DNA from: Escherichia phage Av-05
Sequence record: KM190144
DNA: 64,000 nucleotides
Reading direction: 5' to 3' (one strand)
Positions 1 through 41,762 of the stretch are shown one piece after another. Every line of letters starts with the position of its first letter. Positions within the stretch are counted from its first letter, which is position 1. The translations under genes were made by a program, and so were the position numbers. The notes below the pieces were generated by a model. The model did not search any database. It saw only the letters and a list, made by a program, of their open reading frames with translations, and was not told where the DNA came from.

Positions 1-300
1 CATGCAGATCAGACTATATCTTGTGTGTTATTACACACCCCCCTGTTTCGGCGGTTGATAATCAACCGGAGGTTTCCCTCACCGCTTGGCCCTAACGCCC
101 GTAAGCGATAGTCGTTGAACGTTCATCCCATAGGGATGCTTCGCTGCGGATTGTCTAAACATTCACACTGTTACTATACTCAACGTCATTACCGTTGACC
201 ATAAATATGTTACCATACCTACTTAGTGGTGATATGTATAAAGAGTTACCCGTCAATTAAAGGGGTTTATAGAGAGCACACGGTTCTACCCTCATCGAAA
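1..300 (-). mobile_element. Group I self-splicing intron (5' part; continues beyond window start) interrupting the terminase large-subunit gene
   Basis: Minus-strand reading gives the four conserved group I core elements in canonical order P-Q-R-S: P-like AATTGACGGG (plus 249-258), Q-like AATCCGCAGC (143-152), R-like GTTCAACGACTA (109-120), S-like AAGATATAGTC (12-22). Region is non-coding and the terminase ORF stops at 267. Boundaries approximate. Confidence 0.6.
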
Positions 301-3536: not shown

Positions 3537-3582
3537 CTTAACTCTCCTTGAGTACAAAACAAGATGCGTAAAGACTAGCACA

Positions 3583-3609
3583 TAAAGAAAAACCCCGCAA
3601 TAGGCGGGG
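3583..3609 (-). terminator. Rho-independent terminator at 3' end of tRNA operon
   Basis: Hairpin CCCCGC-AATAG-GCGGGG; minus strand T-run follows (plus-strand A-run 3583-3591). Confidence 0.6.
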
Positions 3610-3741
3610 TTAGGCATAGGAGAGGAGATTGATTGGATTATTATTATAGTTATTTGAGAAAAGTGGCGAAGGAACCTTTACATGTCGAGAGTGTCTTACC
3701 GTTTACTCAGCCACGACCTTCCTTAGTGTCCACTTTAATTC

Positions 3742-3817
3742 TGGTTGCGAGTATTGGGATCGAACCAATCTGGACTGGCTTATGAGACCAGCGAAGTCAC
3801 CAGACTTCAAACTCGCA
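3742..3817 (-). tRNA. tRNA-Met (anticodon CAU), CCA encoded
   Basis: Manual cloverleaf: acceptor TGCGAGT/ACTCGCA, anticodon loop CTCATAA, T-loop TTCGATC. Confidence 0.75.
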
Positions 3818-3821
3818 ATGT

Positions 3822-4052
3822 TCATTTATTACCAAGAGAAATCCTTCTAGGTGGATGACCAAAATGGATCTCATAAGAACCATCAAGTCTTCCTTTCTTT
3901 GTCCGGCAATACTTATCTACTTTCTTGTAGTCCTTCACCTCTTGAGTAGTATACCTAGAATCGGCAATAAGTAGAATAAGAGGCCACCCAACACAAAATT
4001 TTCTAACTGTCTCTATTTTTTGGATATATGCACTCTTCAATTTTCTTCGCAT
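3822..4052 (-). CDS. Small basic hypothetical protein (76 aa) between tRNA genes
   Basis: ORF track only. Confidence 0.3.
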   Translation of the reverse strand: MRRKLKSAYIQKIETVRKFCVGWPLILLIADSRYTTQEVKDYKKVDKYCRTKKGRLDGSYEIHFGHPPRRISLGNK

Positions 4053-4067
4053 GATCTATTTCCTGTT

Positions 4068-4143
4068 TGGTGTGACGGACAGGATTCGAACCTGTGACCA
4101 CCTAGTCTTCAGCAAGGCACTCTACCAACTGAGTTACCGTCAC
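4068..4143 (-). tRNA. tRNA-Phe (GAA), CCA encoded
   Basis: Acceptor GTGACGG/CCGTCAC, D-arm ACTC..GAGT, anticodon loop CTGAAGA, T-loop TTCGAAT. Confidence 0.8.
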
Positions 4144-4148
4144 ATGAT

Positions 4149-4225
4149 TGGTAGGCGATGAGGGACTCGAACCCCCAAAATTCAGGTTCTAAGCCTGACA
4201 TGTATACCAATTCCATCAATCGCCC
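4149..4225 (-). tRNA. tRNA with anticodon UAG (Leu codon family) but class I (short variable loop) architecture
   Basis: Acceptor GGGCGAT/ATCGCCT, anticodon stem TCAGG/CCTGA, loop CTTAGAA, 5-nt variable loop, T-loop TTCGAGT, discriminator A, CCA encoded. Confidence 0.6.
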
Positions 4226-4239
4226 ATCTATATTAACAG

Positions 4240-4431
4240 TTACGGTTTTCCGCGATACACAGAAATAGTTTTTCCATTGGCATTGATCACGTAGGCGGTC
4301 TGATCCTCAGACAAAAATACTTTTTGATCAACGCCGGAAATAGCTATAGACTTTTGATGAGCGCAATACCCAACAATTTTGCCACAAAAAATTTGTTCAT
4401 CATTTGGGGAGACTACTTTAACTGTTAACAT
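4240..4431 (-). CDS. Small hypothetical protein (about 64 aa)
   Basis: ORF track trimmed to internal ATG preceded by GAGGA; upstream part of track ORF overlaps tRNA-Pro. Confidence 0.3.
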   Translation of the reverse strand: MLTVKVVSPNDEQIFCGKIVGYCAHQKSIAISGVDQKVFLSEDQTAYVINANGKTISVYRGKP

Positions 4432-4473
4432 GGTATCCTCTGTACATTTCTGTTTTGATATGTATATGTTTGT

Positions 4474-4551
4474 TGGTCTGTCCGGTTGGATTTGAACCAA
4501 CGACCTGATCATCCCAAGTGACCCGCGCTACCCAAGCTGCGCTACGGACAG
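4474..4551 (-). tRNA. tRNA-Pro (UGG), CCA encoded
   Basis: Acceptor CTGTCCG/CGGACAG, D-stem GCGC, anticodon loop CTTGGGA, T-loop TTCAAAT. Confidence 0.8.
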
Positions 4552-4635
4552 AGAGATGTAGATTTTAATTGTCCCAGAATCTACAAACTGGTATCGCTGG
4601 CTAGGTGATATCTGTGACTTGATTAAGTCAAGAAT

Positions 4636-4726
4636 TGGCGGTTCCTGAAGGATTCGAACCTTCGGTGGGGAGATTCCTCCCAACGGCTTAACAGGCCGTC
4701 ACCATCGACCACTCGGTCAAAGAACC
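4636..4726 (-). tRNA. Class II (long variable arm) tRNA with anticodon GUU (Asn codons); identity ambiguous
   Basis: Acceptor GGTTCTT/AGGAACC, Ser-like D-arm ACC-GAGTGGTCGAT-GGT, anticodon stem ACGGC/GCCGT with loop CTGTTAA, 19-nt variable arm TGGGAGGAATCTCCCCACC, T-loop TTCGAAT, discriminator G, CCA encoded. Confidence 0.55.
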
Positions 4727-4735
4727 AGAATATTT

Positions 4736-4812
4736 TGGTGGATCTGGTTAGATTCGAACTAACAATCCCTCGATTAAAAGTCAAGTGCCTTAAACCATTT
4801 GGCTACAGATCC
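4736..4812 (-). tRNA. tRNA-Lys (UUU), CCA encoded
   Basis: Acceptor GGATCTG/CAGATCC, anticodon loop CTTTTAA, T-loop TTCGAAT. Confidence 0.8.
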
Positions 4813-5034
4813 TTTAAATTATCTTTAAAATAGCTAATTACTCGCACATAATTAGCTATACGCAACAGCCCTCTAGGGAGGGCACACTAATGATAGATTA
4901 CGATTACATGACCATCATGAGTGTTTGACTTACGCCAGTAAAGAGCGGACTGCTCTGGGGTATCGGTAAGATGGTTGCAGCCATCCACCGAAAAATCACA
5001 CCAAGCAACTAAACAAGCTACATTAAAGATAACT

Positions 5035-5123
5035 TGGAGGAGGCTGACAGAATCGAACTGTCACCATATCTCTACAGCGGGACTGGGTTCAAACCAGCTT
5101 GTGCACCATGCACCCCAGCCTCC
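5035..5123 (-). tRNA. tRNA-Ser (UGA), class II, CCA encoded
   Basis: Acceptor GGAGGCT/AGCCTCC, anticodon stem GCTGG/CCAGT loop TTTGAAC, long variable arm, T-loop TTCGATT. Confidence 0.65.
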
Positions 5124-5201
5124 AAAAATAGCCTCTGCCGAGAAGATACACCCAACAAAGACGGCGCTCAGGTCCGAAGAAATCTGAGCCTTGACATACA
5201 G

Positions 5202-5295
5202 TGGAGGAAGATGCCAGACTTGAACTGGCACACCCATTTCTGGGTTACTATCTCCTTAGCAGGGAGACCCCTTACCAAATTAGGGTTAATCTTCC
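5202..5295 (-). tRNA. tRNA-Ser (GCU), class II, CCA encoded
   Basis: Acceptor GGAAGAT/ATCTTCC, anticodon stem TCTCC/GGAGA loop CTGCTAA, long variable arm, T-loop TTCAAGT. Confidence 0.7.
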
Positions 5296-5316
5296 AATAC
5301 CTTAGTAATTAAAAAC

Positions 5317-5406
5317 TGGTGGAGAAGGAGAGAATCGAACTCTCAAGCCGTTTTACCAGTCAGCACATTTCCAATGTGGTTTCGTCGCCAATCGATTTGC
5401 TTCTCC
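5317..5406 (-). tRNA. tRNA-Ser (GGA) candidate, class II, CCA encoded
   Basis: Acceptor GGAGAAG/CTTCTCC, T-arm GAGAG-TTCGATT-CTCTC, anticodon loop TTGGAAA with one mismatch in stem; D-arm irregular. Confidence 0.5.
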
Positions 5407-5415
5407 GTTTTAACT

Positions 5416-5491
5416 TGGCAGGGGATGGTTGATTCGAACAACCGATCACGGGGTCAAAGCCCGTTGCATTAGGCCACTATGCTAATCCCCT
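5416..5491 (-). tRNA. tRNA-Gln (UUG), CCA encoded
   Basis: Acceptor AGGGGAT/ATCCCCT, D-stem GCAT/ATGC, anticodon stem ACGGG/CCCGT loop CTTTGAC, T-loop TTCGAAT. Confidence 0.8.
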
Positions 5492-5492
5492 T

Positions 5493-5574
5493 TGGCACGA
5501 GAGTGAGGAATCGAACCCCTTAGTCACTGGTTTTGGAGGCCAGCCTTCACCCAGTGAAGTTACGCTACTCTCAT
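5493..5574 (-). tRNA. tRNA-Trp (CCA) candidate with atypical, extended D-arm region
   Basis: Anticodon loop CTCCAAA followed by ACC as in E. coli tRNA-Trp; T-loop TTCGATT; acceptor ATGAGAG/CTCTCGT; 79 nt before CCA. Confidence 0.5.
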
Positions 5575-5597
5575 TAAAAACTATTTTCGGAATGGGT

Positions 5598-6140
5598 TTA
5601 TATATAAAACGCCAACATCACTCTTTCTCTTGAGAAAGCTCGGTCTTCAGGAACAACACTCTTCAGTTTCCAACCAACATAAATTCGCCAGTAAAATTGT
5701 TTTCCAAACAGTCTGAAAGACGGGACAAACGCGAATAAACCCCACGCATTGTCATTCCACATCAGCAAGTAGCCTTGTTGATTATCCTCCACATCAGAGC
5801 TTACATGGATGTTTCCTTTCCACTTTGTCACAGATGTAATTTCACGCCCAAGTGCGTGATAGGAGAAATTGTAGGCTTTATTTCTCCACAACCAAGCAAC
5901 TCGTTGCAGATAAACACCAAAACTCCCTATCTTGCGAACTTCTGCCCATCTCTCTATGTGTCCTTTATCACCATCTATAGGATTATCATATGTTTCCATC
6001 CACCTGAAAATATAAGGTAGATGCCCTGTCTTCTCATTATAGAACGGAACAACAAAAGGAGCCAGAATAACACAGAGAACCGACATAACTGGGTCAAGAG
6101 GTGCTAACAGAATCCACGATAAATATTTCAAGTATCTCAT
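5598..6140 (-). CDS. Hypothetical protein (180 aa, hydrophobic N-terminus) embedded in tRNA cluster
   Basis: ORF track; no recognisable motif. Confidence 0.45.
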   Translation of the reverse strand: MRYLKYLSWILLAPLDPVMSVLCVILAPFVVPFYNEKTGHLPYIFRWMETYDNPIDGDKGHIERWAEVRKIGSFGVYLQRVAWLWRNKAYNFSYHALGREITSVTKWKGNIHVSSDVEDNQQGYLLMWNDNAWGLFAFVPSFRLFGKQFYWRIYVGWKLKSVVPEDRAFSRERVMLAFYI

Positions 6141-6367
6141 GCAGGATCAAGCCTAGATATAATGTACTGGTTTAAATCTGAATATGGGAAGATACTTTCA
6201 AAGATAACCTGTTTAAATCTGAAACCGCACAAACCGAAAAGTACCTTCTGACACTCCCCAAAAGAACAATCTTTACCAACTTTTATCACAACCGTATCGG
6301 CAACCTGCACACTTTCTATCTCTTTAGGTTCATGATGCCGTACTATGATTACTTTAGAAACCATCAT
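6137..6367 (-). CDS. Hypothetical protein (76 aa)
   Basis: ORF track; 4-nt overlap with downstream ORF suggests coupling. Confidence 0.4.
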   Translation of the reverse strand: MMVSKVIIVRHHEPKEIESVQVADTVVIKVGKDCSFGECQKVLFGLCGFRFKQVIFESIFPYSDLNQYIISRLDPA

Positions 6368-6492
6368 ACTCGTCCGTATTAAAGCCTTCTACTAAAGATA
6401 GAAGATGTCTAGGGTTGGACCGCAAACTCAACCCCATGGAATTTGTTACGGTCTTCAGTTGACCCAAGCGGATTTCATTGACATCTTTTAGA

Positions 6493-6567
6493 TGGAGCAT
6501 CCAGAGGGTATCGAACCCTCGACTTCAGCTTGGAAGGCTGTAGTTTTCCCAATTAAACTATGGATGC
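6493..6567 (-). tRNA. tRNA-Gly (UCC), CCA encoded
   Basis: Acceptor GCATCCA/TGGATGC, D-stem GTTT/AAAC, anticodon loop CTTCCAA, T-loop TTCGATA. Confidence 0.75.
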
Positions 6568-6572
6568 ATATT

Positions 6573-6648
6573 TGGTGGGAGTGGTAGGCTCTGCCCCTAC
6601 GTCCTCTCGATTATCGGTCGAGCGATCTACTAACTGATCTACACTCCC
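6573..6648 (-). tRNA. tRNA-Ile (GAU)-like gene with non-canonical T-loop and C33
   Basis: Acceptor GGGAGTG/CACTCCC, D-arm GATC-AGTTAGTA-GATC, perfect anticodon stem CTCGA/TCGAG with loop CCGATAA, T-arm GTAGG-GGCAGAG-CCTAC lacks TTCGA, CCA encoded. Confidence 0.45.
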
Positions 6649-6716
6649 AAACTGTACTGGCCCAACAACCACGATTGGAGGGTATCGTCACACATCAAAG
6701 CCAGTACAGATTTAGT

Positions 6717-6806
6717 TGGTGTGCCGTGATAGAGTCGAACTACCCGAGTCCCTTTCGAGACAGGAGATTTACAGTCTCCCCCGCTACCCCTACGGTCTAA
6801 CGACAC
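6717..6806 (-). tRNA. tRNA-Tyr (GUA), class II, CCA encoded
   Basis: Acceptor GTGTCGT/ACGGCAC, anticodon stem GGAGA/TCTCC loop CTGTAAA, long variable arm, T-loop TTCGACT. Confidence 0.75.
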
Positions 6807-6807
6807 A

Positions 6808-7155
6808 TTAACCTTGTTTGAATTGAACAATATCCGTCGAGAACGGTTTAGCTGCCTTAATGGGAGCTTTTTCTGAGTTATCTTTTTCGAGTAACTCTTC
6901 GTTTTCCTCATCAAAGTAATCAGAAAGCATCTGCTCACCTTTCTCAATAACATAGCGAGCAATATTTTCTCTGATATTGTCTTTTGTATTCACATTCTTC
7001 ATCAAATCCCTAAGAACCTGATGAGCTTCAGGAATCATTGCAATCAGATTCGTTTTCAAATCTAGGATATTTTTCTCTAACTGAATTGCATTAGATTCCT
7101 CTTTCAGAGGACGACCTTTTCCTCTTCTACGTTTTGTAAGCTGCTTAGTAGCCAT
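6808..7155 (-). CDS. Hypothetical basic protein (about 116 aa; MATKQLTKRRRGKGRPLKE...)
   Basis: ORF track trimmed to ATG at 7155 downstream of a consensus promoter; the longer track ORF overlaps tRNA genes. Confidence 0.45.
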   Translation of the reverse strand: MATKQLTKRRRGKGRPLKEESNAIQLEKNILDLKTNLIAMIPEAHQVLRDLMKNVNTKDNIRENIARYVIEKGEQMLSDYFDEENEELLEKDNSEKAPIKAAKPFSTDIVQFKQG

Positions 7156-7174
7156 TTTAAAACCCCACTTAATG

Positions 7175-7203
7175 ATATTATCAAATAAAAACATATCTGT
7201 CAA
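7175..7203 (-). promoter_or_regulatory. Sigma70-like promoter (TTGACA-17-TAATAT)
   Basis: Minus strand -35 TTGACA at plus 7198-7203, 17-nt spacer, -10 TAATAT at plus 7175-7180. Confidence 0.6.
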
Positions 7204-7240
7204 GTGGTATTTTAACATATTTACCAAGAAATTGAAAGTT

Positions 7241-32495: not shown

Positions 32496-33215
32496 TTATT
32501 CAAAATCATCAACACCGCTATCGGTAAGGTTTTCTCTGCTCGAGGGTTTTGTTGAAAGAACTTGCTCAAGCAGAGAGGAGAATTTCTGCAAATTGCTTAC
32601 AGAAGAAGTTCCTGTTGCCATGGCAAGCATATCCACTTCTTTTTCGGTAGGTTGCGTCCAGTCTAGAAACATCTCTTTCATGTACAACGTTGATGTCCCT
32701 ATTGGTGTGGCGTGGTCAACCCTATCAGCATAGACCCAGAAAAGAACTTCTTTCTCTATACATACACACAAAGCAGCACCCAACGAGTATCCTGTAACGA
32801 GGATCTCGACATTCAGGTCATCCCAGTGAAATACAACACCCAAACACTTCATACCCACAATGTCTTCCACTGCGGGTTTTAGCTCCTCATGGGAAGAAAG
32901 GGAGTCATAGTTAATATTCTTTATGAATTTAAGAACGTCTTGGCTGTTGTAGACGCAATCACTATCTCCTTGCTTCCAGTAACCCCAAAATGAAGTCGAC
33001 AAATTCAACCAAAAACTTGCAGTTGTCCCTAATGTCTCAGCCAGTTTTTCAGCCACATCCTCTGTTACTTCTTCCATGTTATATAGGATAGTTCTTAACT
33101 TATTTACAGGTATACCAGATCTGTCGGCAAGATCATCCACACACCAACCTAATGGATCCAGATATTCGTGGATAATAACCTCACCTGGTGACGCTGGTGC
33201 TCTTTCTTTCTGCAT
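32496..33215 (-). CDS. HigA-like HTH (XRE-family antitoxin-type) domain fused to an about 170-aa C-terminal domain of unknown function
   Basis: N-terminal GEVIIHEYLDPLGWCVDDLADRSGIPVNKLRTIL...LAETLGTTASFWLNLSTSFW resembles the HigA/VapI HTH signature (...SxxFWLNLQ); start trimmed to ATG after AAGGGGAAAG. Confidence 0.55.
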   Translation of the reverse strand: MQKERAPASPGEVIIHEYLDPLGWCVDDLADRSGIPVNKLRTILYNMEEVTEDVAEKLAETLGTTASFWLNLSTSFWGYWKQGDSDCVYNSQDVLKFIKNINYDSLSSHEELKPAVEDIVGMKCLGVVFHWDDLNVEILVTGYSLGAALCVCIEKEVLFWVYADRVDHATPIGTSTLYMKEMFLDWTQPTEKEVDMLAMATGTSSVSNLQKFSSLLEQVLSTKPSSRENLTDSGVDDFE

Positions 33216-33268
33216 TCTTTCCCCTTTTTCTCTACCAGAAAACCCTGCAAAGCAGGGTTTTGTTACTA

Positions 33269-33472
33269 TCAGCATTTAGGCGAGCATTTATCGCACGGGC
33301 ATGAAATGCCGTGGAAACACAAACCTGTTCCGTCTTTCTTGACCCCTGTCCCACCACATTGGGGACAACTATCGTGTAAGCATTTTGTTTTTGTTGTCTC
33401 CTCTTCATCTTTATTAAAGAGGTTTTTCATAATCATTTTCTGTTGTTCAATCGTAAACATTTGCGTCCCCAA
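33269..33472 (-). CDS. Small Cys-rich zinc-ribbon protein (67 aa) with DnaJ-type CxxCxGxG motif
   Basis: CPQCGGTG and additional Cys pairs (CFHGISCPCDKCSPKC). Confidence 0.5.
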   Translation of the reverse strand: MGTQMFTIEQQKMIMKNLFNKDEEETTKTKCLHDSCPQCGGTGVKKDGTGLCFHGISCPCDKCSPKC

Positions 33473-34036: not shown

Positions 34037-34229
34037 GCAACCCTCGCTTGTGCCTGTACATTGCTAAGGGCCATACAGAACTCACTATAAAGCATTTCCA
34101 TGCCCAGCCCCATGCAGTTTTTGGTGCATATACCTGCTCAAGTATTTTACTATTCTCCATCTCTGCGGTATGTACAAACCATACAGCAATATACAATGTA
34201 ACTATAATGTAGATAAAGCCATTAATCAT
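34011..34229 (-). CDS. Small membrane protein (72 aa)
   Basis: ORF track; hydrophobic N-terminal half. Confidence 0.35.
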   Translation of the reverse strand: MINGFIYIIVTLYIAVWFVHTAEMENSKILEQVYAPKTAWGWAWKCFIVSSVWPLAMYRHKRGLHEEKTGTA

Positions 34230-35283
34230 TCATCTTATCCCAGCACATTTGTTGCGCTGTCATCAAAACATCGGCAGCAAAGTTAAGATCTGTTGTCTTC
34301 GGTAAATGCGTGTTCTTGTACAGAGTGTTACGAATATAATCATCCTTCTCTTCTGCCCAAGCCAAGAGCTTCTCCAAAGACCATGCACCATTCCTGATTG
34401 CAAGAAGCTCCTGAGCATCAGGTCTTTTTACTAAGACTTTACCTTCTGCTAAGATCTCCTCAGCCATACGCATCAATCTTACCAAATGGAGGGCATGTTT
34501 GCAATCGTACCCGTACTTTTCTTCTAACTCATGCCGGACCGGATTTCTGTTTTCAACCCATGCCCAGTAGTTCTTATGCTTTTCCTTCGCTTGTTTATGG
34601 TCATCTGCCAGATATTTAACGATTAAAATTGGCTTACGTTTCTTATCCTCGTCAGAGAACTGCTCGTATGGAACTTTACGAATAGAACCATCAGAGTTAA
34701 ACAAACCAGCGTTGTCATGTGTACCAATCACACCATAGATATTATCACCCATCGGCAAAAAGACACACAACTTATTAAGGTCATCCAGCATTTTCTGGAA
34801 GTCTTTATGTTTTGTAAGATTATCATCCATCCACGAGTGTGTCAAGCGCATGAACTCTTTTTGTGTTGGTTGCTCTTTAGGTTGCGGGTTATTAATCCAT
34901 TTATTATGGCCTTTGATACGCTTAAGTTGCGCCATCGCGTACCCAGAAAATGTAAAAGCAACTTTGCTTGATAGAAGTTTTGGCGCTTGCTCGCGTAGGT
35001 ACTCGTAAACATCTGAAGTTTGCAGAATGTCACCTCTATCAACAAACATAAGCTCGATAATGTTTGGGTTCATATCAACGAACAGCTTCATATAGTTTGT
35101 TAGCTCATACAGCTTACCATCCTCTTCATCAATAAGAGTCATCTCCCTGTCAACGAAAAATGGGGTAAGAATGCTTTTAGGCTCTGCACAATAAATTCCG
35201 CGAATATCCACATCGGATGTTGGCAAGTTAGTTCCATAGGCAATACTGCCGGAGTAACAACGCATTAGTTCTAGTTTCTTCAT
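34222..35283 (-). CDS. Nucleotidyltransferase-fold (Pol-beta superfamily) protein (353 aa)
   Basis: Classic motif GSIAYGTNLPTSDVDIRGIY (GSx(9-13)DhDh) at N-terminus, helical C-terminal domain. Confidence 0.6.
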   Translation of the reverse strand: MKKLELMRCYSGSIAYGTNLPTSDVDIRGIYCAEPKSILTPFFVDREMTLIDEEDGKLYELTNYMKLFVDMNPNIIELMFVDRGDILQTSDVYEYLREQAPKLLSSKVAFTFSGYAMAQLKRIKGHNKWINNPQPKEQPTQKEFMRLTHSWMDDNLTKHKDFQKMLDDLNKLCVFLPMGDNIYGVIGTHDNAGLFNSDGSIRKVPYEQFSDEDKKRKPILIVKYLADDHKQAKEKHKNYWAWVENRNPVRHELEEKYGYDCKHALHLVRLMRMAEEILAEGKVLVKRPDAQELLAIRNGAWSLEKLLAWAEEKDDYIRNTLYKNTHLPKTTDLNFAADVLMTAQQMCWDKMND

Positions 35284-35660
35284 TGTTGTACCTTTTTGTC
35301 TTTTCTTGCATTATCCCAAAAATTAAGGATATTTTGGTAACGGATTTTGTCTTCCATATATTCAGCTTCATCACGAAGACCACATACATGGTCTATTAAG
35401 GCACATACTTCATTATGGTATTCTGTGCCACTCGTGATGTGTTTAATCATACAAGATCCTGCTTTCCATTTCGAGAGGGAGTATCTCAGATTATCATCTT
35501 TTTCTGTGGGGAAAGCATCAACAAGCACCTTTGCTCTATTCCCTTGTATCGTTTGCACTGTTCCTCGGCGCAGTTCGTTATTACCCCAATAGATAAATAC
35601 TGTATCGCCAACAAATAATCTTGTTCCGCTTGCATCCCTCATTTTATGCCCCCAACACAA
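35280..35660 (-). CDS. Hypothetical protein (126 aa)
   Basis: ORF track. Confidence 0.45.
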   Translation of the reverse strand: MCWGHKMRDASGTRLFVGDTVFIYWGNNELRRGTVQTIQGNRAKVLVDAFPTEKDDNLRYSLSKWKAGSCMIKHITSGTEYHNEVCALIDHVCGLRDEAEYMEDKIRYQNILNFWDNARKDKKVQQ

Positions 35661-35988
35661 AGAAATAATGAACTGTTACCGCTGCAAAGTAAAGCGTTTT
35701 GGAAATCAATCGTAGCCAGCAATCTCTGTTTGTATACACTTTTCCTGCTAAGATATTACTCCCTGTTACGATATTTCCCCACAGCCACACAACAAACAAG
35801 AATGCTCCGAGCAAACCACTTGTCGGTGGTGTTAATGTAGTAATCATCGCAATACCTTCGAGGGTGGCGAATATGAAGAAGTATGGAAATGCCTCCCTTA
35901 CACATTTTATTCCTTTGCCAGTAATGCAGGTATTAACTAAACCTATAAGACAAAATATCGTCCAAAGCACATACAATGTATAAACCAT
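35644..35988 (-). CDS. Membrane protein (114 aa, multiple TM)
   Basis: ORF track; hydrophobic. Confidence 0.45.
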   Translation of the reverse strand: MVYTLYVLWTIFCLIGLVNTCITGKGIKCVREAFPYFFIFATLEGIAMITTLTPPTSGLLGAFLFVVWLWGNIVTGSNILAGKVYTNRDCWLRLISKTLYFAAVTVHYFFVLGA

Positions 35989-36053
35989 AATCCACTTAAC
36001 CCCAAAAATGTTAACCTCTCCAAACCTATCAGAGAGGTTTCAAAAATAATCTA

Positions 36054-36551
36054 CTACTCACCTTTTAGCTTAAAACTTTTCAATGTTTTGATAAAGTCTT
36101 TCTCCGCTGGTGTGTAAGTGTGTACGAAACCTGTCTCTTCGCAGGTGTAGGTATCATTAACCTCCATTGCGTGTGGAGGGATAAATGCACCATCAGGAAC
36201 AGACTTATATTCCGGGTTGTAGATAAATTCCGGCAGCACAACAGCTACAGCAGTCATTGCCCCATTCAAGGCTTTCTTTTCTTCACGCCACCAAGCCACA
36301 GGGTAGGTTTGTAAAGACATTGCCTGATCAAGAAAATCTTCAAGCACGGACTGATAACCACCATTCAAAACAATAATGGTCTTATCTTCTTCTTTCCAGC
36401 ATTTCAGCCAATGGTGTGCAGTGATCTGCTCTGGTGTATATGCTTCACCACTATGCAAAACCATAAGCTCTGCAATGGCGTGTGCTGATTGGATACCTGC
36501 ATGGATACCGCAGATATACTGGTTAACAATACAATACATTCTTGTTTTCAT
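36054..36551 (-). CDS. Hypothetical protein (165 aa) with weak PTH2-type peptidyl-tRNA hydrolase-like N-terminal motif
   Basis: MYCIVNQ..GIHAGIQSAHAIAEL loosely resembles PTH2 signature (hhVVR.DL.MG.GKIAAQ.SHAA); assignment tentative. Confidence 0.35.
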   Translation of the reverse strand: MKTRMYCIVNQYICGIHAGIQSAHAIAELMVLHSGEAYTPEQITAHHWLKCWKEEDKTIIVLNGGYQSVLEDFLDQAMSLQTYPVAWWREEKKALNGAMTAVAVVLPEFIYNPEYKSVPDGAFIPPHAMEVNDTYTCEETGFVHTYTPAEKDFIKTLKSFKLKGE

Positions 36552-36766
36552 TTTTGTTTCTTCCTCAAAATTATCCGTTCAGGACTGAAAAATTCTTTCA
36601 AACACAGGAAGATGGCTAATGCGCCACCCAACCACCAAAAAGGTATCAACAGCAAAGCAGGTATTAAGTCCTCTCCTGTGATACAATCCTGTGTTTTATA
36701 GGTCATGGTAAGAAATACACCTGCTGCTACTATCCCAGCAACCACATACAAGATCAGTTCAATCAT
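36548..36766 (-). CDS. Small membrane protein (72 aa)
   Basis: ORF track; two TM segments. Confidence 0.4.
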   Translation of the reverse strand: MIELILYVVAGIVAAGVFLTMTYKTQDCITGEDLIPALLLIPFWWLGGALAIFLCLKEFFSPERIILRKKQK

Positions 36767-37079
36767 TATCCCGTTTCTCCAGAAACGCTTTCACCGCAAG
36801 AGCCGCAGCGTAAATTGCCACAAGACAAATACAAAATGTGAAAATAATAGGTAAAACCATTACCGCAAACATCATAAACAGTGGTCCTGCAACAGTAACG
36901 AATGCTGTTCCAAGCAACAATAGAAATACCACATATTTATCTGCCGTCTCATCCACCTTCTTAAGATACACACCTAAACACACAGAAGACAACAGGAATG
37001 ACAGAATGGACAGCAATAGATACCAATTATCAATAAAGATGATAATTGGACCAGCAACATTTTCTAGCCACCACATCAT
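36759..37079 (-). CDS. Membrane protein (106 aa)
   Basis: ORF track; three hydrophobic segments. Confidence 0.4.
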   Translation of the reverse strand: MMWWLENVAGPIIIFIDNWYLLLSILSFLLSSVCLGVYLKKVDETADKYVVFLLLLGTAFVTVAGPLFMMFAVMVLPIIFTFCICLVAIYAAALAVKAFLEKRDND

Positions 37080-37093
37080 ATATACTTACCTCT

Positions 37094-38338
37094 TTAGAAT
37101 AACATATCTCTGCTGATTGCTTTACGAATAGCATCAATACGGGCTACTCGCACAGCCTCACCAATCTCTTTACCCTTCTTACCTTTTTCCAGAAGGGGTT
37201 TTGTTATAGCTTTAGAATCAACTTTTGTCATAGCGTCGTAGGCTTCCAACAAAATATGACCCTGAGGATAAGGTTTATGTCTAAAATCACCACCTCTCCC
37301 TTTAGCATCACAATAACACGCATCTGCAAGTGTGTAAACCTTTATTTTCTGATCAGCTTGTCCAGCAGCTTCAAATATTTTCATGATGCTTTTTGGTTTC
37401 AAACCGTTGTTACCATCTTTGGGGGAGATGGCGTGCACTTTTGTGTGATTTTCCGCAACATATTTTGCCGTGTCACGATAGATATTATAAATCTTCAACC
37501 TTTCACACAAGGATTGGATAACATCTACACCAGCTTTTTCATGACCATGAAGATTACCATTGTCCTTATGAGTCACAGCTTTGCCAAAATCATGGCACAG
37601 CACAGCAAACTTGGTCAGTGGATCAGCTCCTAATTCATCAGCAACCCGTAACGCTAGAATTGTATGGGTGTAAGCATCCCCTTCTGGGTGATGTTCTTTA
37701 GGTTGTTGCACACCACGTAGGGCTTCCAGTTCAGGGAGTTCGCCAATACGTCCCATATTGACAGCAAAAGATCTGAAATAACCACTCTTTAAGGCTTTCA
37801 ACATTTCCTTCCATTTACGCTCGGCGCTTATTTCTGCCAAAGAGTGTCGGTTGTCATAAGCCAGTTTAAAAGTTTCTGGATGGATATGCCATTCTTCCCC
37901 AAGCTGGGCTTTAAATCTAAACAGGCGTAGAATACGTAATGGATCTTCAATAAATGCCTGTGATGTATGACGTAATGTTTTAAGTCCTAAGTCAACCTGA
38001 CCACCAAAAGGATCTATAATTTCACCACTCTCAACATCCATCGCCATGGAATTGATGGTTAGGTCTCTACGTGCCAAATCCTCTTCCAGAGTTACATCTG
38101 GACTAAAGCATACCTCAAATCCTTTATGGCCTTCACCTGTTTTTCTTTCTGTGCGTGCAAGAGCGTACTCTTCTCTTGTTTCTGGGTGAAGATAAACTGG
38201 AAAAGATGCGCCAACTTGTGTGAACCCTCTTTTCAACATCTCTTCATGCGTAGCACCAACAACCACATAATCACGGTCTGATATTTCACGACCTAACAAT
38301 TTATCTCTTACTGCGCCACCTACCAAGTATACCTTCAT
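37094..38338 (-). CDS. cca: CCA-adding enzyme (class II tRNA nucleotidyltransferase with HD phosphohydrolase domain)
   Basis: N-terminus MKVYLVGGAVRD...DRDYVVVG...RDLTINSMA matches bacterial Cca head domain; HD-type motif LCHDFGK; start at ATG overlapping upstream stop (ATGA). Confidence 0.85.
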   Translation of the reverse strand: MKVYLVGGAVRDKLLGREISDRDYVVVGATHEEMLKRGFTQVGASFPVYLHPETREEYALARTERKTGEGHKGFEVCFSPDVTLEEDLARRDLTINSMAMDVESGEIIDPFGGQVDLGLKTLRHTSQAFIEDPLRILRLFRFKAQLGEEWHIHPETFKLAYDNRHSLAEISAERKWKEMLKALKSGYFRSFAVNMGRIGELPELEALRGVQQPKEHHPEGDAYTHTILALRVADELGADPLTKFAVLCHDFGKAVTHKDNGNLHGHEKAGVDVIQSLCERLKIYNIYRDTAKYVAENHTKVHAISPKDGNNGLKPKSIMKIFEAAGQADQKIKVYTLADACYCDAKGRGGDFRHKPYPQGHILLEAYDAMTKVDSKAITKPLLEKGKKGKEIGEAVRVARIDAIRKAISRDMLF

Positions 38339-38607
38339 TTCTTCGCCCACGTATTCATATAATTAACAATATCTTTTACGGCTCTCTTTCCGTCTAGTGG
38401 ATAAACTATGTCATCGCTCATCCCACCGTGTTTTAGCATTGCTACCAGTCTAGTATATACCTCTTTTGGTCTTTTGCAAGTTCTTTTCTTCCATTTATGA
38501 CCGTCTGGGGAGTACTCCTTATCTTCAAGAGAGATATGAAGTATATCCCCTATAAACTCTTTAGCCTGTGTGCTGTAAAGTGGACGGTGGAATATGTAGA
38601 ATTTCAT
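38335..38607 (-). CDS. Hypothetical protein (about 91 aa) translationally coupled to cca
   Basis: Track ORF trimmed to ATG after AGGAGCAAGCA. Confidence 0.45.
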   Translation of the reverse strand: MKFYIFHRPLYSTQAKEFIGDILHISLEDKEYSPDGHKWKKRTCKRPKEVYTRLVAMLKHGGMSDDIVYPLDGKRAVKDIVNYMNTWAKK

Positions 38608-38696
38608 TGCTTGCTCCTTTGTTGTAATAACAATATCAGTGCAAGCCACCTGTGTCAACACATAAAGAAAAACCCGCTAAAAAGCGGGTTAATCTC

Positions 38697-38978
38697 TTAC
38701 CATGTTACAAATATGTTTATAGATGTGCCTTGTTTTGTTGGTTGATAGCTAATAATATCTACCGTGAAGCCACCACCACGAAGATCGCCAACAATATGAG
38801 GCAGGTAATCACCCATTTCCTCCGGGAACTGTAGTGACATACCCATTCCAAATAGACCTTTCTTTGCACACTGGCTGATCCCGTTTACTATCTGGTCGTA
38901 CAGTTCCACCAGAGATTTTGGGGTGTCCTTTTTCGACTTGTTCGCTATCTCTCTCATTTTGCTGGCGACATTTGCCAT
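38697..38978 (-). CDS. Hypothetical protein (93 aa)
   Basis: ORF track; strong RBS AAGAGGTAAAG. Confidence 0.5.
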   Translation of the reverse strand: MANVASKMREIANKSKKDTPKSLVELYDQIVNGISQCAKKGLFGMGMSLQFPEEMGDYLPHIVGDLRGGGFTVDIISYQPTKQGTSINIFVTW

Positions 38979-39489
38979 CTTTACCTCTTAAAAAATAGAA
39001 AGGCTTCAAATTAAGGGTGTTCTTTTTGTCCCACACATACCATGCATACCCGCTTCCATCTGTCTTACCATCATCTGTAAAAGATGGTCTTTGAGAAAGT
39101 ACAAGCAGAGATGTTGGAGGATTATCTTGCCACCACTCCCACCTTTTCATACTTTCAAGAAAACCAAGGCGTAGAAGCATGATAACGACATCAGCGTCAC
39201 GTAGAGCTTTCTCAACAAATTCCTGAGCCAGTGAGTATGGAGGGTTAGAGATTATGATGTCTGTGTGATTATACTCTGTTGCCAGATAATCAACACCTTG
39301 ACGTATTTCTCCCCAAGCACTTCCGATTGGTAGAAAATTATAAATCCTACCGGAAGCCCTGCACGGCTCCATATATTTCTTTTTCATATCTATGGGGATG
39401 ACTTCCAACAGGGCTTCAACAGCCCATACTGGGGTTTCATACGTATCGTATTCTCTCCGCTCACTCTTCCTTTTCAGGGGCGCTACCAT
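38809..39489 (-). CDS. DNA N6-adenine methyltransferase (phage Dam-like, NPPY motif); C-terminal extent uncertain
   Basis: ETPVWAVEALLEVI...IISNPPYSLAQEFVEKAL; ORF tail overlaps next gene by about 170 nt in another frame. Confidence 0.65.
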   Translation of the reverse strand: MVAPLKRKSERREYDTYETPVWAVEALLEVIPIDMKKKYMEPCRASGRIYNFLPIGSAWGEIRQGVDYLATEYNHTDIIISNPPYSLAQEFVEKALRDADVVIMLLRLGFLESMKRWEWWQDNPPTSLLVLSQRPSFTDDGKTDGSGYAWYVWDKKNTLNLKPFYFLRGKDGKCRQQNERDSEQVEKGHPKISGGTVRPDSKRDQPVCKERSIWNGYVTTVPGGNG

Positions 39490-40415
39490 CAGTTATTCAC
39501 CTTTTCCATAGCCTCTTTCAAAAGATCTTCTGAGACACCAAGAATCTGATTTAACAAAACGTCCCGCTTATGTGGTATTGTGCGTGTTTCACTTTCACCA
39601 TATCGTAGGCTATTCAGTTGCACAAGGATTCCTTTTAACTCCTCAACATTAAAACCGTCAAAATCACGTTCATTGAGTGTTAGCATATTGAAACTGAAAT
39701 TTTCACCCCCAATCGCTATATTTAGAGGCACTTCCTGTAGTTCATCTTCAGAAACAATATCTATATTTTGCAGTGCTACACTCTTCGACTTTGCAGGTTT
39801 TGTCGTTTTCGGTCCTGTTATATACTTCAGCCCTTGTTGCTCTCTTCGGATATTCTCTTTATCCAGTAAAGCGGCTTCTGTGCGTACCAAAATATCTTCT
39901 TCTGTCAGCCAAACTTCCCCACCACCTTTAATGGTTTCCATTTCTTCAGGTGTTAGCACATCTTTATAGAAATAATCGAAGACACGATCAAAGTAGTCTT
40001 TTTGGAACACAGCTTGGCGGTAAATATTGGATCCGTCTCCACCTATCCAACCCTGGTAGTTATGGAACATAAAAATTGTCAATGGTGAAACAGTTCTCCG
40101 CTCACATGCCAACCATAATACTGTTCCTGCTGAACACACTTGGCCTTCTGCATGAACAATAACCATGGCCTGACTTTCTCTGATGGCGCTAACGTATGCC
40201 ATAGCAATAGCAACATCCCCACCCAATGTATTTATAATAATGCGTACCGTATCCTCTGGGTTGGCTGCACGAATTGTTTGTAACCGCTCTTGGTGGTCTT
40301 CCAACCAATGCATCTCGTTAACGTACACGACATGATTATTGGCATAGGCACGATATGTGAAAACATTAGAAGTCTCTACACGGTTAATATCAAATCCGTT
40401 ATTCAGTTTTTGCAT
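39489..40415 (-). CDS. ClpP-like serine protease (S14 family) with C-terminal extension
   Basis: INTLGGDVAIAMAYVSAI and VHAEGQVCSAGTVLWLA correspond to ClpP INSPGG and catalytic Ser regions. Confidence 0.6.
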   Translation of the reverse strand: MQKLNNGFDINRVETSNVFTYRAYANNHVVYVNEMHWLEDHQERLQTIRAANPEDTVRIIINTLGGDVAIAMAYVSAIRESQAMVIVHAEGQVCSAGTVLWLACERRTVSPLTIFMFHNYQGWIGGDGSNIYRQAVFQKDYFDRVFDYFYKDVLTPEEMETIKGGGEVWLTEEDILVRTEAALLDKENIRREQQGLKYITGPKTTKPAKSKSVALQNIDIVSEDELQEVPLNIAIGGENFSFNMLTLNERDFDGFNVEELKGILVQLNSLRYGESETRTIPHKRDVLLNQILGVSEDLLKEAMEKVNN

Positions 40416-40896
40416 TACAAACCTCTTCGTTTTTAATGAGGATACCCCTCAGAATGTGACTATTGCTCAAAAGCCAATCTATATTTATACCGCACTCCTC
40501 GTCAACAATAACTTTGTCACTATATCTGGAGCACCGGATAACTCTACGCGCATACTCAGCCGCTATAGCTGCTTGATGTATGATTGTAAATATGTCAAGT
40601 TCATCTTTAGTAAGATGAATGAACTTAGATTTACCATTCATGCAGATGAGATGCTCTAGCAGCTCAATTCTGTTAGAGAACATCAATTCGGCATCCTTCT
40701 TAGCAGCACTTTCAGAATAAAACATACTAGCTAAGAGGCTTTTATTAACAACTCTTAAAGAATTAGCTACCGTGGTCATATATCTGTTATAAAGCTCAGT
40801 AGCCATCTCTTCAAACACGTCAGGCTCTACAACACCACAATTCTGTAACTTTACCAAGGTATCGTTTGTTAAGACACTGTAGACAGTATTTTTCAT
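40399..40896 (-). CDS. Hypothetical protein (165 aa)
   Basis: ORF track. Confidence 0.45.
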   Translation of the reverse strand: MKNTVYSVLTNDTLVKLQNCGVVEPDVFEEMATELYNRYMTTVANSLRVVNKSLLASMFYSESAAKKDAELMFSNRIELLEHLICMNGKSKFIHLTKDELDIFTIIHQAAIAAEYARRVIRCSRYSDKVIVDEECGINIDWLLSNSHILRGILIKNEEVCNAKTE

Positions 40897-40902
40897 TGTC
40901 CC

Positions 40903-41211
40903 CTACCTAGCAATTAGATATTGTATCTTTCCGTCATCTTCCTGATACCCAACATCTACAACATAGTATTCCCCAACATCAGGAATCAACAACTTATCCC
41001 CAACCTCGTACTCTTTTGCGGTATGGTATACCATTGATTCTGTAAAATATTTGTACTTATCCATATCGTTAATGTTGCATGAGATTTCCATTTCTCCGTT
41101 GTTGTTGGGTATGAGAATATCCTCACCATTCTTTTTCCCAACCACATAACCACCTACCAATGTTTTAACTAAGCACAGTGTTTTATTGAGTTTGTCTTGG
41201 AACTTTGGCAA
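40903..41211 (-). CDS. Hypothetical protein (102 aa)
   Basis: ORF track. Confidence 0.45.
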   Translation of the reverse strand: MPKFQDKLNKTLCLVKTLVGGYVVGKKNGEDILIPNNNGEMEISCNINDMDKYKYFTESMVYHTAKEYEVGDKLLIPDVGEYYVVDVGYQEDDGKIQYLIAR

Positions 41212-41728
41212 AAGAATCCTCCATTTTGTCCAGGAATGTTTCCAGGAGTTTTATTCTTTCTGGTGTGTTAAGATTAAGTGTTTTAATCCCTTTCATCTTA
41301 GCAAGATTGACAGCAGTAGCCGTGCCGCCTCTTGGATTGCCATTCTTATCTTCTTTTGCAAAGTAGAGCACAAAGGAAGATGGCTTTGGGTTGTTAATAT
41401 TCACTCCCAACACTTGATGCACATTCCTAGAATGCAACGCAAATGCTGATCTGTTTCTCAACAATGCTTGTGGGTTTGGATGCACCTTTTGCACCAACTC
41501 ATCTCGATATTCTATTTGGTCGATATATAGATGGTTAATATATTGTAAGGCATAATCCCAGTTATCGTACAAACCCACTTCTTTATCACCAAAACCTTTC
41601 CATGGTATGTAGATTTCTGCGAGTCTGTTACCATACAACATTTTGGTTTTATCGTCAAGGCCATCGAAATATCGCTGCATCCCTCTCTGGAACGCTGCAT
41701 CGGCTCCTTCTGCCTTACCGCTCCGCAA
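41183..41728 (-). CDS. DprA/Smf-like (SLOG-type Rossmann) protein, tentative
   Basis: N-terminal SGKAEGADAAFQRG resembles the GxAxGxDxxAHxGA nucleotide-binding signature. Confidence 0.35.
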   Translation of the reverse strand: MRSGKAEGADAAFQRGMQRYFDGLDDKTKMLYGNRLAEIYIPWKGFGDKEVGLYDNWDYALQYINHLYIDQIEYRDELVQKVHPNPQALLRNRSAFALHSRNVHQVLGVNINNPKPSSFVLYFAKEDKNGNPRGGTATAVNLAKMKGIKTLNLNTPERIKLLETFLDKMEDSFAKVPRQTQ

Positions 41729-41762
41729 TGTAAACCCTATTTTTTTTTCAAGGAGTTAAGCA

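Follow-up and report, generated by a model that had tools for sequence, protein, structure and literature searches.

A ClpP-fold peptidase outside the head module and an overprinted methyltransferase gene in a probable non-structural operon of Escherichia phage Av-05

Introduction

Which task does a ClpP-fold peptidase have in a phage, if its gene lies beside genes for a methyltransferase (MTase) and a DprA-like protein and away from any head genes? This question is raised by positions 38697-41728 in a stretch of 64,000 nucleotides (nt) from the genome of Escherichia phage Av-05 (sequence record KM190144). The whole stretch is called the window here, and all positions refer to it. The region comprises six open reading frames (ORFs), which an original prediction, made from the letters of the window, had described as an accessory cluster. 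All six are present on the minus strand and supported by profiles of the PHROG database, and the broad guesses made on their domains (ClpP fold, MTase, DprA/SLOG-like protein) were supported by profile, motif and fold matches.

We consider it likely that the region represents the part distal to the promoter in a conserved non-structural operon of Vequintavirinae, in which the peptidase is not the head protease and the MTase carries no target-recognition domain. The operon as such is ordinary for rV5-like coliphages and has been annotated before in GenBank and in PHROGs. New here are a likely flaw in the Av-05 reference sequence, corrected family labels and a supported dual-coding overlap.

Organization and conservation of the operon

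Whether an ORF is real was judged by matches to PHROG profiles and by synteny of orthologues in Vequintavirinae genera. The PHROG E-values of the six ORFs ranged from 1e-33 to 7e-128 and, since each of them matches a PHROG family, none is a chance ORF. The genes are arranged in the order PhoH, DprA-like, p102, p165, ClpP-like, MTase and p93, followed by a terminator, and reside in that arm of the genome which serves nucleotide metabolism and RNA repair. Orthologues of every operon gene occur in the same order in at least five Vequintavirinae genera. The succession of ribonucleotide reductase (RNR), endolysin (not in every case), PhoH, a DprA-like protein of 200-214 amino acids (aa), p102, p165, ClpP-like protein, MTase and, later, a CCA-adding enzyme was seen in TH18, SalP219, FENT2, VIK251, Hena1, CR9 and one more distant relative (L040). 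This order was also disclosed by five independent contigs of metagenomic or genomic origin, in which the ClpP-like protein has 94-98% identity to the window copy. Counting all cases, the gene order of the operon is kept in six metagenomic contigs. In phiTE and rV5 the core of the operon is retained minus the DprA-like gene at this position, and in rV5 a single small ORF lies between PhoH and the ClpP-like gene. The nearest relatives of the window are vB_EcoM_TH18 and three marmot phages (92-94% nucleotide identity), all of them Vequintavirinae.

The first of the six ORFs is a remnant of a DprA-like (SLOG/Rossmann) gene at 41183..41728 (181 aa, TTG start; PHROG 768). It is followed by p102 (40903..41211), which matches PHROG 5456 over its full length at 2.5e-41 and has the identical position in all Vequintavirinae examined, and by p165 (40399..40896; PHROG 7224 at 1.2e-70), which is syntenic in Seuna-, Mydo-, Henuna-, Certre- and Avunavirus-type relatives. 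Both are conserved proteins of unassigned function; p102 had no match in Pfam, NCBIfam or PADLOC. The 3′-end of p165 and the start of the ClpP-like gene (39489..40415; 308 aa, PF00574, PHROG 5410 at 6.6e-128) overlap by 17 nt. The stop codon of the latter shares one base with the start codon of the MTase gene (38809..39489; 226 aa, NPPY motif, assigned by motifs and fold) in the sequence TGATG, a junction by which the MTase is predicted to be translationally coupled to the ClpP-like gene. The last gene, p93 (38697..38978; 93 aa, PHROG 12158 and PHROG 15143), is followed 6 nt past its stop codon by an intrinsic terminator on the minus strand (38671..38690), consisting of an 8-bp stem with five G-C pairs and a subsequent T-run. 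Thus, the transcription unit is bounded by the terminator at 38690-38671 and by coupled or overlapping gene junctions. The operon is predicted to be transcribed at early or middle times together with the genes for nucleotide metabolism.

Apart from one sub-threshold NPPY match, PADLOC gave no defence or anti-defence family. Literature searches on non-head ClpP-like proteins of phages yielded genome annotations only and no functional study.

The ClpP-like protein

The ClpP-like protein was matched by PF00574 over residues 39-143 (41.3 bits versus a cut-off of 20.2; 2e-10), while the NCBIfam ClpP models reached 17-33 bits versus cut-offs of 228-347. An AlphaFold model of the monomer had a mean predicted local distance difference test (pLDDT) score of 78, with values of 87-94 over most of residues 31-190 and a dip to 64 at residues 121-130. 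When this model was compared to the PDB with Foldseek, the top 50 matches were all ClpP structures (E ~1e-8, best E = 4e-9; template-modelling score of ~0.7 on the target). The ClpP domain (39831..40343) covers residues ~25-195 and includes a handle helix at residues 128-150. Ser95 (codon at 40131-40133) and His118 (codon at 40062-40064) were aligned to the catalytic serine and histidine of E. coli ClpP, and both residues as well as the oxyanion glycines Gly65-Gly66 were invariant among 30 homologues. Judged by alignment and model, the protein has a ClpP fold in which Ser95, His118 and the oxyanion glycines are intact.

The C-terminal extension that had been proposed for this protein turned out in the model to be a separate folded domain (39492..39743; residues 225-308), composed of a beta-hairpin and two long helices. 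It is joined to the ClpP domain by a disordered linker (residues 203-224, pLDDT <50), has itself pLDDT values of mostly 82-91 (58 around residues 271-280) and contains three nearly invariant residues, F255, E259 and L260. In an exhaustive search 6,829 representative homologues of the protein were found, about six of which match over the full length; at E <= 1e-10 the search gave 1,797 representative proteins, and again only about six also bear the C-terminal domain. This domain is confined to Vequintavirinae-like phages. A profile search of an index of 5.8 billion proteins with the ClpP-like alignment found nothing beyond the Vequintavirinae family. The ClpP-like protein of ICP1 has a C-terminal extension, too, which was considered as a homologue and rejected, as no relation to that of the window protein was detectable. 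The C-terminal domain may serve to recruit a phage or host partner or a substrate.

Location of the ClpP-like gene outside the head module

In the head module of TH18, a protease of the Peptidase_S78_2/XkdF type (PF14550, E = 1.1e-15) is encoded between the portal and the major capsid genes. The ClpP-like protein of rV5, gp122, is absent from the mass-spectrometry file of the rV5 virion. By tblastn with the ClpP domain, homologues were detected in 713 phage records. In all Vequintavirinae relatives examined, the ClpP-like gene lies in the nucleotide-metabolism arm, and among about a dozen sampled lineages there was no case in which it lies in the head module. The ten other phage groups sampled carry the gene beside replication or nucleotide-metabolism genes or, as in T5-like phages, beside lysis genes. 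These comparisons indicate that the ClpP-like protein is not the prohead protease, the relatives possessing an XkdF/S78-type protease in the head module. The location away from capsid genes had already been remarked upon in the original prediction, with which the S78_2 protease of TH18, the virion data of rV5 and the replication-gene neighbourhoods agree.

In ICP1 the order is RNR, lysozyme, PhoH, two further genes, ClpP-like and ligase, in vB_CoeS_P1 PhoH, two further genes and ClpP-like, and in J2-1 endolysin, PhoH, HNH, ClpP-like and MTase. From the literature we took the neighbourhoods of V22 (PhoH, Clp) and Barba18A (adenine methylase, CLP_protease, PhoH). The gene is flanked by frd and uvsX in nt-1, while in PaP1 tRNA genes lie upstream of it and genes for a deoxycytidine monophosphate deaminase and a DNA ligase downstream. 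It is preceded by a primase gene and followed by RuvC and RNR in pf16, separated from RNR by one gene in AD45-P2, and located between genes for a deoxynucleoside monophosphate kinase and a holin in T5-like phages. Adjacency to PhoH was thus recurrent among the sampled cases (Vequintavirinae, ICP1, vB_CoeS_P1, J2-1, V22 and Barba18A).

In ICP1 (ICP1_2006_C, 2196-4894), vB_CoeS_P1 and J2-1, PhoH and the ClpP-like gene are at most two genes apart, and none of the genes in between is a homologue of the DprA-like gene, p102 or p165. A 210-aa gene product of ICP1 encoded between the two was examined for homology to the DprA-like protein, which was ruled out (hhalign probability 0.2%).

Docking of an unfoldase and the active site

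Databases annotate the ClpP-like family, including the Av-05 protein, as 'ATP-dependent protease'. We compared the positions known from the literature on acyldepsipeptides (ADEP) and ClpX to form the hydrophobic pocket for the IGF/LGF loops of ClpX or ClpA in E. coli ClpP (Y60, Y62, F82, I90, M92, F112 and L114). In a MAFFT alignment (23% identity) the window protein has R58, I60, E80, H88, E90, T108 and S110 at these positions. R58, E80, H88 and E90 are invariant in the ClpP-like family. Since the pocket residues are replaced, the label 'ATP-dependent protease' is not supported. On balance we favour that the peptidase would form a self-compartmentalising ring acting without ClpX or ClpA, because the docking residues have given way to conserved charged or polar ones.

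Two points weigh against this picture of the peptidase. At the expected position of the triad aspartate the window protein has Glu167, and the family has Glu or Gln there, although the local alignment is weak. Moreover, the comparison of the docking pocket depends on an alignment at 23% identity.

It is conceivable that the protein, in line with its database label, hijacks host ClpX or ClpA and provides the proteolytic subunit of an ATP-dependent protease. A handle helix, which a two-ring chamber needs, is part of its ClpP fold, and a conserved N-terminal segment (N6, F8, Y21, P22) could make axial loops. However, the seven IGF/ADEP pocket positions are occupied by Arg, Ile, Glu, His, Glu, Thr and Ser, four of them invariant, and no AAA+ unfoldase is encoded adjacent to the ClpP-like gene, which makes this explanation unlikely.

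Least probable of all is a capsid-related function, be it as a second head-maturation protease or as a protease-scaffold fusion whose helical C-terminal domain targets the prohead. Such a function would fit the best profile matches after the protein's own PHROGs, which are of head-maturation types (PHROG 1684 at 1.9e-21, Clp_rel_HeadMat at 2.1e-14), cellular ClpP scoring just ~3e-8, as well as the label 'head maturation protease' of the homologues in J2-1 and in Klebsiella phages, a name of the kind that annotators using PHROGs sometimes give to homologues; absence from the virion is compatible with it, as prohead proteases usually leave the capsid. Yet, the NCBIfam model NF045542 (Clp_rel_HeadMat) reached only 53.8 bits versus a cut-off of 120, the gene is outside the head module in all of the dozen or so sampled lineages, and in the relatives an XkdF/S78 protease already lies between the portal and capsid genes. 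Those T4-like and T5-like phages that bear a homologue possess well-known head proteases of their own. For the ClpP-like family both current labels, 'ATP-dependent protease' and 'head maturation protease', are poorly founded.

The window adds one more instance to the many lytic phages with a non-head ClpP-like peptidase beside PhoH. A wider hypothesis would describe a large non-structural peptidase family that has lost the ClpX/ClpA pocket and resides repeatedly by PhoH and often by an adenine MTase. PhoH and the ClpP-like protein would constitute an ATP-driven proteolytic or RNA-protein quality-control module, and the coupled MTase would have gained a selected overprinted tail in one subfamily. 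Taken as a whole we regard this scenario as improbable; if it were true, phages would possess a specific PhoH/ClpP-like ATP-driven module of their own.

A minimal NPPY methyltransferase

The catalytic core of the MTase (38980..39489; residues 1-170) contains a motif X (YETP, residues 17-20), a motif I (EPCRASG, residues 41-47) and a motif IV (NPPY, residues 82-85; 39235-39246), all of which are conserved in 30 homologues. In the model, pLDDT exceeded 90 over most of residues 21-170. Among the structural matches, type I HsdM ranked first (E = 1e-5), ahead of Dim1/KsgA/Erm and TrmN/TrmM. Distant homologues of the MTase match PF02384, PF07669 and PF05175. The assignment is therefore based on the motifs, the class I MTase core of the model and the HsdM-led structural matches. 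No curated family of Pfam or NCBIfam reached its threshold on the protein, and a sequence profile search of the PDB with the MTase alignment gave chance matches only. The Dam models remained far below their thresholds (PF05869, E = 0.024, 14.8 bits versus 28.1; TIGR01712, E = 0.025, 14.1 bits versus 97), and EcoRI_methylase gave 0.012.

By its motifs and predicted fold, the protein is a minimal gamma-class (HsdM-like) NPPY amino-MTase with a core of ~165 residues, and not a member of the Dam family. It had been proposed to be Dam-like. The adenine-type MTase of that proposal was retained by motifs and fold, while Dam has to be given up in view of the Dam scores and the motif order X-I-IV, which is that of the gamma class; thus, 'Dam' is the wrong class label for this enzyme. 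We found no target-recognition domain in the protein, as the fold ends around residue 170 and short members of the family comprise 166-180 aa, and no HsdS-like gene near the MTase gene among the ORFs of the window and the PHROG matches.

We lean towards an enzyme of relaxed specificity that would protect phage DNA against restriction by methylating its adenines, a role put forward in the original prediction. The disordered, charge-rich tail described below may help the MTase, which has no recognition domain, to hold nucleic acid. DNA is the likelier substrate compared to RNA. The alternative, considerably less probable but to be taken seriously, is that the MTase modifies RNA (N6-methyladenosine in tRNA or rRNA) within an island for translation and RNA repair. 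Its structural neighbours include TrmN/TrmM, which act on adenosine 37 of tRNA, Dim1/KsgA and Erm, one relative is annotated as TrmN6, and a DNA target-recognition domain is missing. The same direction of the genome also holds a CCA-adding enzyme, a PTH2-like hydrolase, a RlaP-type nucleotidyltransferase and 14 tRNA genes, and rV5 encodes two larger DNA adenine MTases elsewhere. On the other hand, two DNA MTases, type I HsdM and PacII, are at the top of the structural matches, the distant homologues match the N6_Mtase and Eco57I families of Pfam, and unrelated phages pair a DNA adenine MTase with the ClpP-like gene. We therefore keep DNA methylation as the preferred reading.

Dual coding in the overlap of the methyltransferase gene and p93

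An overlap of about 170 nt between the MTase gene and the next gene had been noticed before. It measures exactly 170 nt (38809..38978), in which the tail of the MTase is encoded in frame 0 and the N-terminal half of p93 in frame +1. The C-terminal tail of the MTase (38809..38979), comprising residues 171-226 and the stop codon, covers p93 codons 1-56 and is read in frame +2 relative to them. It has pLDDT values of 43-60 and is predicted to be disordered. The p93 gene is preceded by a Shine-Dalgarno sequence (AAGAGG) 5 nt ahead of its ATG. PHROG 12158 (94 aa) covers residues 6-93 and PHROG 15143 residues 45-93 of p93, which is conserved over its full length, rV5 gp124 included. In the annotations of relatives p93 was called as a protein of 39-49 aa or missed; it is thus under-called in the annotated relatives with a long MTase that were examined.

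The MTase homologues fall mostly into two length classes of 166-186 aa and 219-227 aa. The MTase gene extends 146-170 nt into p93 in Av-05-like phages and in Seunavirus, Mydovirus and Henunavirus. We compared the overlap of the window with that of SalP219. The substitutions at codon positions 3, 1 and 2 of p93 numbered 27, 14 and 5, respectively, and amino acid identity was 0.71 in the p93 frame, 0.40 in the MTase-tail frame and 0.40 in the non-coding frame. This pattern points to purifying selection on p93.

To examine the MTase frame, the number of stop codons expected in it was calculated conditional on each p93 protein and on the codon usage of the phage; genome-wide, the ratio of observed to expected stops was 0.99. 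In the 56 codons of the tail frame no stop codon was present in any of four genera, where 4.3-5.6 were expected (P = 0.0009-0.005 each). The rV5 control, which has a short MTase, revealed five stops versus 5.5 expected. The fraction of T at third codon positions of p93 was 0.11-0.14 in the overlap, compared to 0.37 in the genome and 0.38-0.51 in p93 outside the overlap. The corresponding pairs of values in controls with a short MTase were 0.29/0.30 (rV5) and 0.40/0.39 (a second lineage). At risky codon junctions, T occurred at none of 12-19 positions in the overlap and at five of 13 in rV5. Furthermore, the four lineages in which the overlap measures 170 nt share the TGA that closes the MTase frame; in p93 this triplet spans a codon ending in T (for Gly, Ser, Leu or Arg) and a conserved Asp codon. 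The stop and codon patterns indicate that the MTase gene is overprinted with its final 56 codons on the first 56 of p93 and that both frames are kept by selection.

One result counts against a selected tail, namely that its amino acid sequence is no better conserved than the non-coding frame. Any function of the tail must therefore depend on composition or length. A trivial origin of the overlap, by a sequencing frameshift, a mis-called end (both of which had been suggested) or neutral read-through into a functionless tail, would account for the identity at the level of the non-coding frame and for the predicted disorder. The MTases of rV5, CR9, phiTE and L040 have 170-179 aa and stop at or before the next gene, and chance open runs of 60-82 codons exist in this frame elsewhere in the window. 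However, the identical 226-aa ORF is present in at least six independent assemblies and also in four further genera, the lack of stops extends across four genera whose p93 proteins are just 36-71% identical, three of these four MTase frames have their end at one and the same codon, the drop of third-position T is restricted to the overlap, and the short-MTase controls follow the null model. We thus consider a trivial origin very unlikely and abandoned the idea of a frameshift or mis-called end.

Two other candidates were tried and rejected. Termination-reinitiation at Met55 of p93, whose ATG overlaps the MTase stop codon in ATGGGTGA, was dismissed on account of VIK251 and Hena1, which do not have a Met there. 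A slippery heptamer U UUU UUA is located at 38995-38989 on the minus strand, in the MTase frame just 5′ of the p93 start. A programmed -1 frameshift at this site would lead to a TAA two codons on and an MTase of ~170 aa; the heptamer is absent in SalP219-type phages and was taken as fortuitous.

The DprA-like remnant and the breakpoint at 41739/41740

The DprA-like ORF was matched by PHROG 768 ('DprA-like') at 1.3e-43, the match beginning at profile position 36. Its full-length orthologues have 200-214 aa. The window ORF is devoid of ~33 N-terminal codons (MRYYTGVGSRETP...RLAG) including the conserved YTGVGSR strand. It begins at the SG-K-A-E-G-A-D loop, so that the GSR strand and helix 1 are missing, while full-length relatives have both the GSR strand and the SGxAxGxDxxA loop of the DprA Rossmann domain. 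The nearest in-frame stop codon upstream is located at 41758-41756, and the TTG at 41728 is the sole start codon before it. PF02481 gave a sub-threshold match (E = 0.0098) to a full-length relative and no match to the window copy; a profile search of the PDB with the DprA-like alignment yielded chance matches only. The assignment to DprA/SLOG-like proteins is thus supported by the PHROG match, but the truncation had been overlooked. Because the first strand and the first helix of the Rossmann fold are missing, the ORF as written is unlikely to be functional.

The cause of the truncation appears to be a breakpoint between positions 41739 and 41740. To its left lies the body of the DprA-like gene (TH18 107833) and to its right a poly-T stretch, a ribosome-binding site (RBS) and a tail-fibre gene (TH18 58383, inverted), which starts at 41763 on the opposite strand. 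In three-way and four-way alignments, homology to TH18, to two metagenomic contigs and to SalP219 started abruptly at 41739, and megablast matches ended or began exactly at the breakpoint. The window is collinear with TH18 66148-107833 and then with TH18 58383-36230 in inverted orientation. In TH18 the tail-fibre gene is preceded by a small ORF and the genes for major capsid protein, a scaffold-like ORF, protease, portal and large terminase. In five near-identical independent contigs, PhoH adjoins a full-length DprA-like gene. The junction was not seen in any other genome or contig compared, and its 26-mer had no match in IMG/VR or JGI metagenome contigs. From these alignments we conclude that the breakpoint truncates the DprA-like gene. 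It also explains the odd neighbourhood of the cluster: that the latter is away from head genes is correct within the window, but the tail-fibre neighbour is owed to the breakpoint. Within the window, sequence related to the head is confined to an N-terminal part of the large terminase near 267-700, and by collinearity with TH18 the remaining head genes should lie just past the left end of the window.

The Av-05 genome of 120,938 bp was assembled de novo from 36-nt reads (PMC4463512). It is ~13 kb shorter than that of TH18. We rate an assembly artefact from the 36-nt reads as rather more probable than a real inversion. What speaks against an artefact is that no repeat longer than 4 nt is common to both sides of the breakpoint, a poor fit to repeat-driven misassembly. 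The second junction is located outside the window.

A real inversion of ~49 kb (the equivalent of TH18 58384-107833), which split the DprA-like gene and parted head from tail genes, is a strong contender, though somewhat short of an even chance. The collinearity with TH18 is exactly the pattern that one inversion predicts, a shared repeat that would explain a misassembly is absent from the junction, and the RBS and start codon of the tail-fibre gene are intact. But the junction occurs in no other genome or contig, the assembly was made from 36-nt reads and is ~13 kb shorter than those of relatives, and a loss of length does not follow from an inversion alone. The inversion would furthermore interrupt the late operon and knock out a gene that the majority of the Vequintavirinae genera sampled have conserved. 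By either explanation, the artefact being preferred, a mis-join or an unreported inversion is very likely present in the Av-05 reference, which serves as the type of the genus, and comparative studies should beware of it.

Further observations in the window

In the announcement of the Av-05 genome, 97% identity to phage RB69 was stated (PMC4463512). Contrary to this statement, every part of the window is nearest to Vequintavirinae (92-94% identity). The announcement also gives nine tRNAs for the whole genome (PMC4463512), while ARAGORN revealed 14 tRNA genes at 4068-9659 on the minus strand of the window alone (Phe, Leu, Pro, Asn, Lys, three for Ser, Gln, Gly, Tyr, Cys, Thr and Met).

Directly past the operon terminator, a consensus scan disclosed a promoter-like site on the minus strand (38658-38630; TTGACA-17-TATTGT with an extended TG). 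A 108-aa ORF with a GTG start listed at 38335-38661 (minus strand) probably starts at Met19 (MKFYIF...), as PHROG 7526 covers residues 19-108 and the proteins of relatives have 90 aa. Directly downstream of the operon there is a run of genes related to RNA and translation (34222-38350, minus strand), encoding a CCA-adding tRNA nucleotidyltransferase with an HD domain (37094..38350), a PTH2-like hydrolase (36054..36551; sub-threshold Pfam match, E = 0.0016), a DUF7205 protein (35280..35660) and a RlaP-type nucleotidyltransferase (34222..35283). The latter has 353 aa here and in TH18 and was called as a protein of 699-700 aa in metagenomic relatives.

At 10571-13159 on the minus strand, a gene for a nicotinamide phosphoribosyltransferase (571 aa, PHROG 448, 1e-194) lies beside one for a ribose-phosphate pyrophosphokinase (269 aa, PHROG 619, 6e-92). 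The two look like a pair for NAD+ salvage, which has been proposed as a counter to NAD-depleting defence systems. An ORF at 32496-33275 (minus strand; 259 aa) matched PHROG 1381, 'plasmid antitoxin with HTH domain', at 3e-95 and weakly the Pfam family HTH_3. Near the left end of the window, the ORF 267-1397 (minus strand) matches the N-terminus of the large terminase with its C-terminal residues ~235-375 and, with its upstream in-frame part, weakly PHROG 32482, which has a PhoH-like name (1.4e-17). The terminase gene of TH18 is split into several pieces by an HNH homing endonuclease. The first 320 bases of the window have no match to TH18.

Comparison with known systems

The window protein and bacterial ClpP (MEROPS S14, PF00574) have in common the fold, the handle helix, the catalytic serine and histidine and the oxyanion Gly-Gly. 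They differ in that the window protein is only ~20% identical and possesses an additional C-terminal domain of ~85 aa. Furthermore, at the position expected for the triad Asp, in a weakly aligned segment, its family has Glu or Gln, and the hydrophobic pocket for AAA+ docking is replaced by conserved charged or polar residues. Among named families other than its own, the window protein comes closest to the ClpP-related head-maturation proteases (NF045542, PHROG 1684, 94 and 53). The ClpP-type peptidase domain is common to both, and like the window protein these proteases often have C-terminal extensions. Unlike them, the window protein scores below the family cut-off and is encoded outside the head module, where S78_2 fills that slot.

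With the gamma-class N6-adenine MTases (HsdM and Eco57I-like; PF02384, PF07669) the window MTase shares the motif order X (YxTP), I (EPxxGxG) and IV (NPPY). In contrast to these enzymes it consists of a core of ~165 aa without the N-terminal helical domain, the target-recognition domain or an HsdS partner. The small Dam-type MTases of phages (PF05869, TIGR01712) are, like that of the window, stand-alone, phage-encoded N6-adenine enzymes of ~170 aa, but just the NPPY segment of the window MTase aligns to them (E = 0.024-0.025). The full-length orthologues of the DprA-like protein have the GSR and SGxAxGxDxxA motifs of DprA/Smf (PF02481, SLOG); in contrast to DprA/Smf, the phage protein is a single domain of ~210 aa without the SAM and winged-helix domains.

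The nearest described counterparts of the operon are rV5 gp120-gp124 and the cluster of PVP-SE1, to whose orthologues the phiTE record refers. They comprise PhoH, one or more small ORFs, a ClpP-like gene, a small MTase gene and an ORF of 94 aa, as in the window. In Table S3 for rV5 (2013), gp120 is listed as PhoH, gp122 as 'ClpP (ATP-dependent) protease subunit', gp123 with 177 aa and gp124 with 94 aa. Unlike the window, rV5 has neither a DprA-like gene, which is truncated in the window, nor p165 at this position. Its ClpP-like protein has 349 aa, compared to 308 aa of the window copy. The 177-aa MTase of rV5 stops at the start of gp124 (ATGA), hence there is no dual-coding region.

In overprinted genes such as Rz/Rz1 of lambda and those of phiX174, two proteins are made from one stretch of DNA in different frames. 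The MTase/p93 overlap resembles them in that one frame is well conserved and the other compositionally simple. It differs in that the part overprinted on the N-terminal half of the following gene is a C-terminal extension of an enzyme. As the overprint is missing in rV5-type and CR9/phiTE-type relatives, it originated inside a single phage subfamily. The MTase/p93 pair thus appears to be a case of recently evolved dual coding which has natural controls in the rV5-type phages and may be used for studies on overprinting.

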